Assembly: GCF_003945235.1 (NCBI RefSeq)
Contig: NZ_RSDW01000001.1
Location: 840,001-872,000, forward strand
Source: Edaphobacter aggregans
Lineage (GTDB): Bacteria > Acidobacteriota > Terriglobia > Terriglobales > Acidobacteriaceae
Reading direction: 5' to 3'
DNA length: 32,000 nucleotides
Under the pieces are notes generated by a model. That model ran no database searches. It was not told where the DNA came from and saw nothing but the letters and a program-made list of their open reading frames with translations. The translations under genes were made by a program, and so were the position numbers. Shown here in pieces: positions 21,616 to 26,067 of this stretch (positions within the stretch are counted from its first letter, which is position 1; each line of letters begins with the position of its first letter).

Positions 21616-22350
21616 ATGAAAGCGTTCAAGTTGCGAGAGCTGATGATCCATGTGCAGCCAGCTATTCCATGTAATTTGCCAAACACAATAATCTGCCAAG
21701 CAGCCTGCTCCGTGGTGGCAAACACCGTAATCTGTCAGGCAGCCTGCTCCGTGGTGGCAACGGCATGCCATCCTTGCACGGCTGTACACACCTGCGCCGG
21801 CTGCAGTGTAGTTGCCTGCACTGCACATCCGTGCAGCGCCTTTGCATGCAGTGCCAATGCATGCAGCGCTTTCCCGTGCAGCGCACATCCCTGCAGTGCC
21901 AATGCATGCAGTGCGTTTCCATGCAGTGCTCACCCGTGCAGCGTTAATGTGTGCAGCGTTCATCCGTGCAGCGTTAATGTGTGCAGTGCAGTCGCTTGCA
22001 GTGCTGCCGTTGCATGCAGTGCTCGGGTCTGCACCGCTGCAGTAACTGTGATCTGCAATGTCCCTGCAAGCATCTGTGGGGCAGTAACTGTAACTCCGCC
22101 GATCGACATCGATCCTGGCGGTCCAGTGGAATCGATAGCCAACCTCGCAGCGCTGAAAGCACAGCTCAAACAGCAACTCGCCGCTGTTGAAGAGCAGGAA
22201 AAATCTGTCGGAGAAAGTCTGAAGCCTCAGACCGTCGCCGAAGTCGATGACCTTCAGGCAAAGCTGCAAGGAGCTATAGAAGAGCTAAAGGCTCGTCGCG
22301 CCGAACTTGAGAAGCAGGAAAAGAGCAAAGGAAAGGAGCCTGCAAAATAA
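21616..22350 (+). CDS. 244-aa Cys/Ser-rich pentad-repeat protein with a C-terminal charged helical tail; candidate RiPP (lanthipeptide-type) substrate
   Basis: AGGAGG (21604-21609) lies 6 nt upstream of ATG 21616. There are 26 Cys between residues 19 and 154, with 13 consecutive [S/T]-x3-C pentads. Repeat copies differ only at synonymous sites in this frame. The gene is on the same strand as, and 52 nt upstream of, the two enzyme genes. Confidence 0.75.
   Translation: MKAFKLRELMIHVQPAIPCNLPNTIICQAACSVVANTVICQAACSVVATACHPCTAVHTCAGCSVVACTAHPCSAFACSANACSAFPCSAHPCSANACSAFPCSAHPCSVNVCSVHPCSVNVCSAVACSAAVACSARVCTAAVTVICNVPASICGAVTVTPPIDIDPGGPVESIANLAALKAQLKQQLAAVEEQEKSVGESLKPQTVAEVDDLQAKLQGAIEELKARRAELEKQEKSKGKEPAK
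21682..21759 (+). repeat. tandem 39-bp in-frame duplication (NTIICQAACSVVA / NTVICQAACSVVA)
   Basis: Units 21682-21720 and 21721-21759 differ at 4 of 39 nt: three synonymous changes and one Ile/Val change. Confidence 0.9.
21805..22032 (+). repeat. 15-bp-period coding repeat array ([S/T]-x3-C pentads) with 45-bp and 30-bp higher-order units
   Basis: The array encodes SVVAC TAHPC SAFAC SANAC SAFPC SAHPC SANAC SAFPC SAHPC SVNVC SVHPC SVNVC SAVAC, then SAAVAC and SARVC. The 45-bp units 21850-21894 and 21895-21939 encode identical peptides with 8 third-position differences. Confidence 0.9.
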
Positions 22351-22402
22351 AAGGAAAAGAATCAGTTAAATCATCGGCCAACGGGCCACTTGGAACCTTC
22401 TG

Positions 22403-23623: not shown

Positions 23624-23625
23624 CC

Positions 23626-26067
23626 ATGCAGATGACCGAGCCCATGGTTCTTCCAATTGACCTGCTCATCCTTCCGGTTCAGGATCTGCCTGAGCATGTA
23701 CGCCAGCAGGTTAAGGCCGAGGAGGGTGACTTTGCCCTCACCCGCCCAAACTCTCGCACACCATCCCGCATTATCGATGCCGCCGCCGCCGATCTGCTCA
23801 AAGAGTTCCGCAGCCCCGTCACTATCGTTGAAGCAGTTATCCGCTACAGCCGCGAACGCAAAATTGACCCTGAACAGATTCTCGAAGAGGCATATCCCTT
23901 GCTGGAGCGGCTCGCAGGCAGCCATCTCCTCGTACCGTCGTCCTCCGAAGAAGCCAAAAAGATTCAGGCCTCGCTCGAGGTCCCCTCCCGTTTCCTGGAG
24001 TTTGAGGTCGTCCGTTGCCTCCAGTCGCTAGACGACACCGAGCTCTATCAACTCAAGAGCGAGGACGGCCAATTCGTCGCGCTCAAGCTGGGCCGCTCCG
24101 ATGCCCGGGACCATGCGTTGCGTATGTTTGATCGCGAAGAAGCCATGCTCACCCGCCTCCACGGAGAATCTACCCCACGCTTATTGCGCAGTGGAAAGAC
24201 TGACAACGGCCAACGCTATCTCGTCATGGAGTGGTGTCCTGGACAAGACTGCGCTACCGCCGCAACGCACCTTCGCTCGCAGGTTGGCATGGCATCGCGT
24301 CGCAGGCTGCTCGCTCTTTGCTCTTCGATCCTCGAAGCTTACGTCAGGCTTCACCAGAAGAACGTGATTCACTCCGATATCCATCCTCGCAACGTCCTCA
24401 TCGACAACTCAGGCGATCCTAACCATCCCGGCCAGGCAAGAATCATCGACTTCGGATTCGCCCGCATCTCCGGCATCGAGCACGAGTACCGCGCCGCCCA
24501 ACGAGCTGGCGTGGCCTTCTTCTTCGAGCCCGAATACGCCCGCGCTGCCCTGCGCAAACAGCCCCCTCCCGCCTCTTCCGCACTCGGCGAACAGTACGCT
24601 CTCTCCGCTCTGCTCTACTCCCTCATCACTGGCAACTACTACCTCGACTTCTCTCTCGAGAAGGAAGAGATGTTACGTCAGATCGCCGAAGATCCTCCTC
24701 TTCCCTTCATTCGCCGAGGCGTCTCTGCTTGGCCTGAGCTCGAGCAGATTCTCGCCAAAGCCCTCAGCAAGCACGCTTCCGATCGCTTCCTGACTCTTGC
24801 CGAGTTCGCAGCCGCCATCAACGCCCTCGCGCAAAGCCAGGACGTCGCCATCGACGAAGCCGTCCAACCGTCGGCTTACCCCGATGCGCAACAGATGCTC
24901 CGCTCTATCATCGAGCGCATGGACGTCGGCGGGAGCCTCTTCGACGCAGGGATCAATGCCGCGCCGAGTGTCTCCGTCACTTACGGTTCGGCAGGCATCG
25001 CCTACGCTTTCTATCGCATCGCCTGCACCCGCGACGACCCCCATCTTCTCGCTACGGCCGACCTCTGGTCTGCACGCTCCTCTAAGGATGTTGGCCGGCC
25101 CGACGCTTTCTACAGTACCGAGATCGAGATCACCCCCGAGATCGTCGGGCGCATCTCTCCCTACCACACCGCCAGCGGAATCTACGCTGTACAGATGCTC
25201 ATCGCTCGCGCCCAGGGCGACCTGCTTACCCAGCAGCAAGCAATGGAAGCCTTCCTCTTGACTGCGCGGCAAGCCCCGTGCGAGAGCCTCGACGTCACGC
25301 TCGGCCGGTCCGGTCCGCTGCTCGCAGCATCCTTCTTACTCAATGCAATCCGCGGCTGCAAATACATCGAGGCAACTCCGCTCACCACCTTTGGAAATCA
25401 AGTCTTCGAAGAAATCTGGGCCGAACTCGATACCTTTAAACCGATCCGCGAGTGCAAGCAAATCGCCTACTCGGGAGCCGCCCACGGATGGGCCGGCATC
25501 CTCTTCGCTACCTTGAATTGGTGCAAGGTCTCCGGCGCTCCCTTACCTCACACCTTGGAAGAACGACTCGACCAGCTCGCACGCATGGCCGAACACTTCG
25601 GCCGCTGCACCCGCTGGAAGTGGAGCATCCGCCCCATGAGCGCCGCCCAAGGTAGTCAATACATGGCAGGATGGTGCAATGGAAGTGCGGGCTTCGTCTT
25701 TCTCTGGACGCTGGCCCACCGCATGCTCGGCCAACCCGAACACTCCCGCCTCGCCGAAGGCGCCGCATACGATGCCTGGGAGTCCGAGAGCCCGCTCGGC
25801 AATCTCTGCTGCGGCTACGCCGGACAAGCTTACGCCCTCCTGAACATGTACAAGCACTCCGGCGAACCTGTTTGGTTGTACCGTGCCCAAGCTCTCGCCC
25901 AGCGTGCCGCACGCGCCATCCTCGATATGCCCCACGGCGAAACCTTTCAGGACCTCGTCCTCCGCGGCGACAGCCTCTACAAGGGCGAAGTAGGTGTAGC
26001 GCTTCTGACCGAAGAACTGAACCGCCCCGAGTACGCGGCCATGCCCTTCTTTGAGTTGGAAAGCTGA
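23626..26067 (+). CDS. 813-aa fusion protein: N-terminal RRE-like region, protein-kinase-like domain and LanC-like cyclase domain
   Basis: GGAGG (23611-23615) lies 10 nt upstream. The kinase motifs are VALK (K154), HSDIHPRNVLI (249-259) and IIDFGFA (DFG 275-277). The LanC-type motifs are YGSAGIAYAF (453-462), AAHGWAGI (618-625), GWCNGSAG (C684) and NLCCGYAG (C728, C729). Confidence 0.9.
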   Translation: MQMTEPMVLPIDLLILPVQDLPEHVRQQVKAEEGDFALTRPNSRTPSRIIDAAAADLLKEFRSPVTIVEAVIRYSRERKIDPEQILEEAYPLLERLAGSHLLVPSSSEEAKKIQASLEVPSRFLEFEVVRCLQSLDDTELYQLKSEDGQFVALKLGRSDARDHALRMFDREEAMLTRLHGESTPRLLRSGKTDNGQRYLVMEWCPGQDCATAATHLRSQVGMASRRRLLALCSSILEAYVRLHQKNVIHSDIHPRNVLIDNSGDPNHPGQARIIDFGFARISGIEHEYRAAQRAGVAFFFEPEYARAALRKQPPPASSALGEQYALSALLYSLITGNYYLDFSLEKEEMLRQIAEDPPLPFIRRGVSAWPELEQILAKALSKHASDRFLTLAEFAAAINALAQSQDVAIDEAVQPSAYPDAQQMLRSIIERMDVGGSLFDAGINAAPSVSVTYGSAGIAYAFYRIACTRDDPHLLATADLWSARSSKDVGRPDAFYSTEIEITPEIVGRISPYHTASGIYAVQMLIARAQGDLLTQQQAMEAFLLTARQAPCESLDVTLGRSGPLLAASFLLNAIRGCKYIEATPLTTFGNQVFEEIWAELDTFKPIRECKQIAYSGAAHGWAGILFATLNWCKVSGAPLPHTLEERLDQLARMAEHFGRCTRWKWSIRPMSAAQGSQYMAGWCNGSAGFVFLWTLAHRMLGQPEHSRLAEGAAYDAWESESPLGNLCCGYAGQAYALLNMYKHSGEPVWLYRAQALAQRAARAILDMPHGETFQDLVLRGDSLYKGEVGVALLTEELNRPEYAAMPFFELES

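Follow-up and report, generated by a model that had tools for sequence, protein, structure and literature searches.

The question raised by a three-gene locus of Edaphobacter aggregans (Acidobacteriota) is whether a kinase-cyclase fusion, a separate open reading frame (ORF) and a long Cys-rich protein together constitute a lanthipeptide pathway and, if so, of which kind. The locus occupies positions 21616-26067 of a stretch of 32,000 nucleotides (assembly GCF_003945235.1, contig NZ_RSDW01000001.1, positions 840,001 to 872,000), which as a whole is called the window here. An earlier note, made from the letters of the sequence, had described a lanthipeptide-like operon with a split, non-canonical enzyme set and a giant substrate. 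Our analysis makes it probable that the trio is a self-contained lanthionine-type system for a RiPP (a peptide made on ribosomes and modified after its translation). ORF3 would phosphorylate Ser/Thr residues in the core of the ORF1 product, ORF2 would eliminate the phosphate, and the LanC domain of ORF3, with zinc presumably held by three Cys residues (Cys3-Zn), would close the rings. We favour thioether formation because kinase, lyase and zinc-dependent cyclase are the set needed for it, and because the linked gene supplies Cys as well as Ser/Thr between conserved flanks.

The three genes lie on the plus strand, with gaps of 52 nt between ORF1 and ORF2 and of 2 nt between ORF2 and ORF3; the coordinates, gaps and ribosome-binding sites given in the earlier note were verified in the sequence. 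ORF1 (21616-22350) encodes the 244-aa precursor or substrate protein, ORF2 (22403-23623) a 406-aa stand-alone protein and ORF3 (23626-26067) an 813-aa fusion. The AGGAGG of ORF1 (21602-21607, plus strand) is located 8 nt 5′ of the ATG at 21616, and the GGAGG of ORF3 (23611-23615, plus strand) lies within the 3′ end of ORF2, which, together with the 2-nt gap, argues for translational coupling of the two enzyme genes. The start codons are consistent with the N-termini of homologues.

All motifs that had been picked out by eye in ORF3 (VALK, HSDIHPRN, DFG, GSAG, HGWAG, WCNG and LCCG) are present in its translation, and profile searches for both suspected activities were significant (Pkinase 8.6e-20, LANC_like 2.8e-26). 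Pfam, NCBIfam, an AlphaFold2 model and alignments agree on a fusion of a recognition-type domain, a Ser/Thr kinase and a LanC cyclase. The kinase domain (aa 143-386, 24052-24783, plus strand) is of the Hanks type, as the Pkinase score of 8.6e-20 compares with 1.6e-6 for APH. Its residues K154, E171, H249, D251, N256 and D275-F-G277 are invariant in 35 homologues sharing 47-77% identity, and the same holds for H620, W683-C684 and C728-C729-G730 of the cyclase domain (aa 450-811, 24973-26058, plus strand). An alignment with human LanCL1/2 and plant GCR2 paired AAHGWAG with AAHGLAG, WCNG with WCHG and LCCG with LCHG. The third zinc ligand of ORF3 is thus a Cys, not a His, and all ligand positions are filled (Cys684, Cys728, Cys729; CCG instead of CHG). 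The CCG motif is a hallmark of ProcM-type enzymes and has been linked to substrate promiscuity (PMC10783134, PMC13509491).

The best NCBIfam model for ORF3 is class IV LanL (131.6 bits, cutoff 650). Since this match is confined to profile positions 233-804 of 851, the lyase part of LanL is missing from ORF3. The LanKC model reached 81 bits (cutoff 575), the LanM model TIGR03897 matched the cyclase part only, and the LanM dehydratase domain (DUF4135) gave no Pfam match in any of the three proteins. In Foldseek, the AlphaFold2 model of ORF3 (predicted local distance difference test score, pLDDT, 86.6) matched LanCL1, GCR2, ThurKC (~745 columns) and the kinases PknB and ULK1.

In front of the kinase, ORF3 carries a domain of ~115 aa (23626-23970, plus strand) that is presumed to bind the precursor. 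In the model it has a beta3-alpha3 secondary structure resembling a RiPP recognition element (RRE) or winged helix, with strands at residues 14-17, 36-39 and 48-50 followed by helices at 52-62, 67-78 and 82-98, the order found in RREs. Eight of 14 family members match the Pfam family PF22767 (ThcOx) over aa ~30-105, sub-threshold and with a best E of 0.0027; the ThcOx enzyme is known to carry RRE copies (PMC8795117). The most telling evidence is from Cupriavidus oxalaticus X32, where the same domain is found on a 2OG-Fe(II) oxygenase as well as on the kinase-LanC protein (hhalign 99.5%, E 4.6e-23, 35% identity). Because it is common to two different tailoring enzymes of one cluster, it is likely that the domain behaves like a portable substrate-docking module.

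That a separate ORF stands where a lyase domain would be expected had been noticed before, with no family assigned to it. The lyase identity of ORF2 surfaced only through fold comparison and family-wide Pfam scans. ORF2 alone gave a weak Pfam match to RamC_N (E 0.034); when the family was scanned individually, 20 of 44 members matched HopA1 (PF17914, best E 3.7e-4) and 15 of 44 RamC_N, all sub-threshold. With its AlphaFold2 model (pLDDT 82.4), Foldseek retrieved HopA1 (4rsx; E 5e-7, 284 aligned columns), LxmY of the lexapeptide dehydratase LxmKY (9dk1_B; E 4e-6), CuvL of class IV (E 2e-5), SalKC, ThurKC and PneKC of class III, and two phosphothreonine lyases, SpvC and OspF (E 2e-4 to 2e-3). 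The predicted catalytic half (aa ~215-400, 23045-23602, plus strand) contains K242-L-Y244, K272, R282 and Y289, which are invariant in 44 sequences. Validated catalytic residues are R187, K219, R229 and Y236 in CaoY, established by mutation, and K104, H106, K136, R148 and Y158 in SpvC (PMC9486802). The spacing of K272, R282 and Y289 (+10, +17) is that of K219, R229 and Y236 in CaoY, and K242 precedes K272 by 30 residues, compared with 32 for both R187/K219 of CaoY and K104/K136 of SpvC. The first position is Lys, as in OspF and LanL and unlike LanY, which has Arg. On the strength of the HopA1 and RamC_N matches across the family, the fold comparison and the residue spacing, we propose that ORF2 is the missing lyase and that its structural type is the one known from class V (LanY/HopA1). 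The earlier description of a separate ORF replacing the lyase domain was therefore apt, the ORF having the HopA1/LanY fold in its model.

We turn to the presumed substrate. The 26 Cys and the run of [S/T]-x3-C pentads reported for ORF1 are indeed present; the protein also contains 21 Ser and 11 Thr, with 14 Cys-Cys spacings of exactly 5, 15 occurrences of [ST]xxxC and 19 of C[ST]. It has no Pfam family match. At its N-terminus stands the conserved motif MKAFKLRELMIHV (21616-21654, plus strand; consensus [AS]-F-[KR]-V-K-D-L-M-[IV]-[DN]-V), a presumed leader or recognition sequence, whose F is found in 53/54 and whose L in 54/54 distinct precursors. A hypervariable core rich in Cys, Ser and Thr follows (aa 14-171, 21655-22128, plus strand); between aa 16 and 165 it has 2 charged residues in 150. 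Within the core, the C-S-x-x-x pentads run from Cys63 to Cys139 (21802-22032, plus strand) and are encoded by a 15-nt tandem repeat, which Tandem Repeats Finder reports with periods of 15/30/45/60 nt and 64-86% matches. The protein ends in an amphipathic helix and coiled coil (aa 172-244, 22129-22350, plus strand; core motif L-x-x-L-K-x-Q-L-K-x-x-L), which gave weak coiled-coil matches in Pfam. The helix domain was found by tblastn upstream of ORF2 at many loci, and its motif L-x-x-L-[KR]-x-Q-L-[KRQ]-x-x-L recurs in 51/54 distinct precursors. Its length varies from a coiled coil of ~60 residues in many Terriglobia to Thermoanaerobaculia sequences in which the helix stops after 12 residues.

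Between these flanks, the precursor cores span 31-191 aa and follow hypervariable patterns. There are C-S-x-x-x pentads in the clade of the window, C-T-x-x tetrads at locus L003, CYASGGG heptads at L025 and CTPSPP at L031, other cores being aperiodic. The pentad is a clade-specific variant of the hypervariable core. Position 2 is S/T in 92% of the 287 pentads from 26 members of this clade, and positions 3-5 vary. Over 51 cores, Cys makes up 11.9% of the residues, Ser plus Thr equal or outnumber Cys in 50, and S/T are over-represented at +1, +3 and +4 after Cys (z 7-10 versus shuffles). The nearest precursor from a protein-database search is 58% identical to ORF1. At L086, where the enzymes are 92% identical to those of the window, the precursor is nearly identical to ORF1, and at L087 (enzymes 90% identical) the core is rearranged, yet still built from pentads. 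Since the family ranges from 58 to 595 aa, the notion of a giant substrate holds for the 244-aa ORF1 and fails as a family rule. ORF1 was also considered as a member of the NCBIfam family NF038108 ('Cys-every-fifth RiPP peptide CefA') and rejected: the score of 22.2 bits is below the cutoff of 30, the match is limited to aa 73-123, and the likeness may be one of Cys periodicity only. Ten further precursors of the family gave no match to this model, and no literature on CefA was found. At some loci, such as L023 (4797-5147 and 5443-5832) and L021 (2366-3178 and 3213-4061), two tandem diverged precursor genes stand upstream of one enzyme pair, an arrangement consistent with a single promiscuous enzyme set acting on several substrates.

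The three genes travel together far more often than chance would allow, and sets of this kind are common among soil bacteria. When a single genome was scanned for each GTDB species, 305 species had an ORF2 relative, and 80 species loci were fetched. Wherever the contig allows, a kinase-LanC gene directly follows ORF2 in all 80. Among the 76 loci with enough upstream DNA, 51 have an ORF directly upstream of ORF2 that a strict pattern recognized as precursor-like; inspection by eye added 22 of the remaining 25, which had variant motifs or GTG starts, giving 73/76. The co-occurrence in related genomes that the earlier note had made a touchstone of its proposal is thus borne out. Hosts of the ORF2-ORF3 pair belong to seven or more phyla. 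They include Acidobacteriota (Terriglobia, Bryobacterales, Thermoanaerobaculia, Vicinamibacteria, Holophagales and Pyrinomonadaceae), Eremiobacterota, Chloroflexota (Anaerolineales), Gemmatimonadota, Planctomycetota, Armatimonadota, Bacillota (Bacillus) and Pseudomonadota (Rhodocyclaceae and Zoogloeaceae). Outside the trio, the neighbouring genes are unrelated from locus to locus, even between copies with enzymes 90-92% identical to those of the window, and clustering of the flanking ORFs of 81 loci revealed no further conserved partner; a WS/DGAT-like gene seen at 11 loci reflects synteny within one clade.

Two kinds of neighbour deserve mention in their own right. At several acidobacterial loci, especially in Thermoanaerobaculia, a very large Ser/Thr kinase (869-1195 aa) with one or two kinase domains and a TolB/PD40-type beta-propeller adjoins the trio (L031, L034 and L071, at ~2000-5600; L015, 2665-5274; L001, 4320-7070). 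It could be a clade-specific partner or a coincidence, such kinases being abundant in these genomes. At L086, the closest relative of the window cassette, the next downstream gene (9134-11110) encodes a PD40 beta-propeller with a Peptidase_S9 domain of the prolyl-oligopeptidase family; this gene is not in the window. Enzymes of the Peptidase_S9 type remove the leader in some class III systems.

Copies in cultured strains extend the picture of the precursors. The plasmid of Paenibacillus peoriae HS311 (NZ_CP011513; L090 6011-6763) encodes a 250-aa precursor of three tandem units, each consisting of a helix, MFRTVDLAANV, a 3-Cys core (SANDCGITCLASCGLFS) and a helix. This protein is a multi-core precursor in which each core stands between both conserved elements. 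On the plasmid of Bacillus paramycoides JYZ-SD5 (NZ_CP152428; L091 10781-12568), a 595-aa protein contains ~13 repeats of ~44 aa, mostly with two Cys each and with many Ser/Thr, between an N-terminal F-x3-N-L motif and a C-terminal matching helix (LNQYKQYLKQVIEQIEKVE). Its gene is located downstream of the kinase-LanC gene, not upstream, and large S8 peptidases flank the locus. The precursor of Bacillus pfraonensis has 108 aa and 4 Cys, and Bacillus sp. Xin1 is a further cultured host. The megaplasmid of C. oxalaticus X32 (NZ_CP038636; L092 2280-10548) carries genes for a LanB, a 141-aa precursor-like protein, an ORF2 homologue and the oxygenase mentioned above, with the kinase-LanC gene on the opposite strand. 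This LanB is a full dehydratase (Lant_dehydr_N 3.5e-136), so two dehydration routes may coexist in the cluster. As it combines a LanB with an oxygenase bearing the N-domain of ORF3, the system sits here in a lanthipeptide-type gene cluster. In RefSeq, the enzymes of the plasmid copies go by the names 'hypothetical protein' and 'lanthionine synthetase LanC family protein'.

The domain identities, the conservation of catalytic residues, the gene linkage and the anatomy of the substrate are observations made here, and from them a reaction course can be proposed. ORF1 would dock through its N-terminal motif (F-x-V-K-D-L-M-I-x-V), its C-terminal helix or both, the beta3-alpha3 domain of ORF3 being the likely docking module. 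The Hanks-type kinase of ORF3 would then phosphorylate Ser/Thr in the core, and ORF2 would beta-eliminate the phosphate to give dehydroalanine or dehydrobutyrine. In the lyase, K272 may act as the base, K242 may polarise the carbonyl and R282 may bind the phosphate, with Tyr244 at the position of the His acid of OspF and LanL. Finally, the LanC domain, with its Cys3-Zn site of the substrate-tolerant ProcM type, would add core Cys to the dehydro residues; the C-S-x-x-x run of the window could yield up to ~20 consecutive small rings. These chemical steps are deduced from the observations, and so would be any pairing of a flank with a protein, any topology of the rings and any removal of the flanks. 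Since a coiled coil is retained and no protease or exporter is conserved, the product may be cell-associated and protein-sized.

Several points weigh against a lanthionine pathway of this kind. S/T are enriched on the C-terminal side of Cys (+1, +3 and +4), the opposite of most characterised lanthipeptide rings, and for this reason the ring topology is not predictable. To our knowledge, a long coiled-coil tail is without precedent in lanthipeptide precursors. ORF2 has a Tyr at the position of the catalytic acid His of OspF and LanL, every family-level match of ORF2 (HopA1, RamC_N) falls below the Pfam curated cutoffs, and ORF2-family profiles, whole or restricted to the C-terminal half, found nothing significant among PDB sequences. 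The same applies to the N-domain of ORF3, whose ThcOx matches are below the curated cutoff and whose profile gave no significant match to PDB sequences. Neither a protease nor an exporter nor an immunity gene is conserved beside the trio, which is unusual for a secreted antibiotic.

Could the enzymes instead modify other cellular proteins, as eukaryotic LanCL does, with kinase and lyase creating dehydroamino acids in those targets and the LanC domain adding a small thiol, or with ORF1 as scavenger, adaptor, co-factor or thiol donor? The closest solved relatives of the cyclase by sequence are LanCL1/2 and GCR2, not NisC, domains of the LanCL type fall into one group with the class IV cyclases that are linked to kinases (PMC7268733), and there are no export or processing genes. 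We nevertheless consider this explanation unlikely. At 73/76 loci, the enzymes are accompanied by a linked cognate gene, whose product has conserved docking-type flanks around a hypervariable core. In addition, S/T co-varies with Cys in the cores, one precursor has multiple cores and one cluster contains a LanB, and a scavenger needs neither Ser/Thr of its own nor a hypervariable sequence.

The very high Cys content and its regular spacing also invite the idea that ORF1 is a metallothionein-like protein that binds metal or buffers redox state with free thiols, ORF2 and ORF3 being mere regulators or unrelated neighbours. ORF1 lacks a signal peptide and an exporter, and a coiled-coil tail is a typical trait of proteins with a structural or assembly function, which would suit such a role. 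This explanation is very unlikely, seeing how strictly the gene is linked to those of a kinase, a lyase and a thiol-alkylating cyclase dependent on zinc over seven or more phyla, and given the Ser/Thr conserved beside Cys (the 92% of pentads given above). Moreover, core and Cys spacing differ among the clades (period 5, period 4, CYASGGG, CTPSPP), unlike a defined metal site.

The distribution of the trio raises another possibility, namely a mobile conflict system for anti-phage defence or with a toxin, the kinase acting as the sensor of infection and ORF1 as the effector. The trio is patchy over phyla, transposases adjoin several copies, and plasmids carry it in P. peoriae HS311, B. paramycoides JYZ-SD5 (a conjugative plasmid) and C. 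oxalaticus X32. In the window, its composition is unlike that of its neighbours: G+C content at third codon positions (GC3) is 0.69-0.71 with a GC3 skew of -0.41 in ORF2 and ORF3 (22403-26067), compared with 0.58-0.60 and about -0.1 in the neighbouring genes (19917-21176 and 27126-30884). This deviation, together with near-identical cassettes in unrelated neighbourhoods, some of them beside transposases, suggests that the trio is a horizontally acquired island in this genome. Unrelated flanks, transposases, deviating composition and plasmid copies likewise indicate that it is an autonomous cassette, which is probably horizontally mobile. The kinase domain of ORF3 also matches the PADLOC models PD-T4-6 and Mad6. 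These matches, however, concern the generic kinase domain only, and neither ORF1 nor ORF2 has one. A search of 2.9 million viral contigs yielded no copy, the domains are precisely those that thioether formation requires, and mobility is equally typical of RiPP clusters. A role in conflict is hence hardly credible.

Finally, the relatives of ORF2 form at least 2291 clusters at 90% identity and 1562 at 50%, uniformly annotated as 'hypothetical', and among 150 listed 50%-identity clusters most are stand-alone proteins of ~390-420 aa; the listed homologues of ORF3 are ~800 aa long. An ordinary class IV LanL whose lyase merely appears separate owing to a frameshift, wrongly called genes or a pseudogene at this locus, as might be thought from the best NCBIfam model and from pipelines that label any LanC+Pkinase protein class III/IV (PMC7268733), is practically ruled out by these sizes, which make the split a conserved state, by the match of ORF2 to the whole HopA1 fold (284-291 columns), beyond the lyase domain of LanL, and by the unrelated N-domain of ORF3 with its LanL score of 131 bits versus 650.

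How, then, does the proposed lanthionine pathway relate to those already known? As the earlier note had suspected, the trio fits none of the six lanthipeptide classes, each taken by its own defining features, nor is it described in the literature searched. With class IV LanL (VenL, SgbL, CuvL) it shares a Ser/Thr kinase followed by a zinc-type LanC and the route of phosphorylation and beta-elimination. In contrast, LanL has its own N-terminal OspF-like lyase domain, where here a separate 406-aa ORF with a HopA1 fold is found, and Cys-Cys-His zinc ligands, where ORF3 has Cys-Cys-Cys. Furthermore, ORF3 begins with the recognition-type domain of ~115 aa, and the precursors are flanked on two sides and reach the size of proteins. 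Class V LanK/LanY systems (CaoK-CaoY, LxmK-LxmY and TvaC/D of the thioamitides) likewise have a stand-alone HopA1-like lyase and an adjacent kinase gene. Their kinases are separate and of the APH type, however, and their LanX cyclase is not LanC-like, whereas the Hanks-type kinase of ORF3 is fused to LanC. LanY also has Arg where ORF2 has Lys (K242).

The ProcM-type class II enzymes of the prochlorosins offer further parallels in the CCG cyclase site, in one enzyme acting on many cores and in conserved recognition parts combined with hypervariable cores. As a LanM, however, ProcM has a lipid-kinase-like dehydratase domain, which is absent from the trio, and the leaders of ProcA precursors are long, N-terminal and of the Nif11 type, with no helix at the C-terminus. 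Class III LanKC and class VI, the latter being streptococcal LanKC variants with a reduced lyase domain, combine a kinase with a LanC-fold cyclase in single polypeptides, whereas the trio is split. Class III cyclases are without zinc ligands (PMC8341899), while ORF3 has all three positions filled. The idea that MicKC is without a lyase domain was unsupported by a review and was dropped. Class I LanB (Lant_dehydr_N/C) is absent from the window according to Pfam, and one distant relative, the Cupriavidus cluster, has one. Among solved sequences, LanCL1/2 and GCR2 come closest to the cyclase of ORF3, and LanCL acts on dehydroamino acids from phosphorylated sites. It differs as a stand-alone enzyme with Cys2His zinc that adds glutathione intermolecularly, where here a dedicated Cys-rich substrate gene is linked. 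Taken together, the system is real, widespread and apparently an undescribed hybrid of class IV and class V machinery, arguably a new class. A paper dated August 2026 still counts six lanthipeptide classes, and no description of the trio was found in the literature searched (subscription-only papers were outside its scope).

A bolder proposal, which we advance tentatively and would not bet on, is that of a seventh lanthionine class. Its recognition/kinase/Cys3-LanC fusion and LanY-type lyase would make protein-sized 'lanthiproteins' with tens of thioether rings; these would be recognised at both ends, by a strand motif at the N-terminus and a helix at the C-terminus, and would keep the coiled-coil tail for self-assembly in or on the cell. 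If this were true, stapling would extend to cores as long as hundreds of residues, and the products would not be small excised peptides.

The immediate surroundings of the trio in the window are housekeeping genes, encoding a KpsF-like SIS-CBS sugar-phosphate isomerase, SerB and an amylase-family protein. An examination of the flanking genes corroborated that no protease, exporter, immunity gene or regulator adjoins the trio in the window. A perfect 13-bp inverted repeat (26133-26161, plus strand) lies 66 nt past the stop codon of ORF3. It is likely the transcript end despite its missing T-run, owing to which the terminator scan did not flag it. A sigma-70 promoter scan found none on the plus strand upstream of ORF1, and an Rfam scan of the window gave no match. 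A long antisense ORF (21493-22269) is a by-product of the repeat.

A peculiarity of the window outside the locus is the extreme strand asymmetry at third codon positions between 1 and 19900, where plus-strand genes have a GC3 skew of -0.57 to -0.72 and an AT3 skew of +0.1 to +0.4. The single minus-strand gene there, for an aminotransferase (15069-16274), shows the mirror-image skew on its coding strand, and the asymmetry is therefore a strand bias and not a codon preference. It ends abruptly near 19.9 kb, SerB having a GC3 skew of -0.10. It could stem from a mutational or replication bias of great strength, or from a contig that is chimeric.

What the finding implies concerns first the way in which such clusters are counted. 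In mining pipelines, a LanC+Pkinase protein is assigned to class III/IV in every case, with no check for a lyase (PMC7268733), and because of this, clusters like the present one are tallied as 'class IV' in soil and peat surveys. Current mining rules mislabel them and miss their precursors, which are too long and have an unexpected C-terminal helix of recognition type. Since copies occur in cultured strains, the question of their chemistry is directly testable. Designed sequences of great length could perhaps be stapled with this enzyme pair, if it is naturally promiscuous and the chemistry holds. If true, the thioether reading would extend the sizes of modified products to 595 aa, including tandem pentad arrays and multi-core precursors. 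The trio combines features known before only separately, namely a stand-alone lyase of class V type, a kinase-LanC fusion of class IV type, a Cys3 zinc site as in ProcM and an RRE-like docking domain, and it is therefore informative on the evolution of lanthionine synthetases by domain shuffling. If the chemistry holds, this family would represent a large and phylogenetically broad lanthipeptide-type system.

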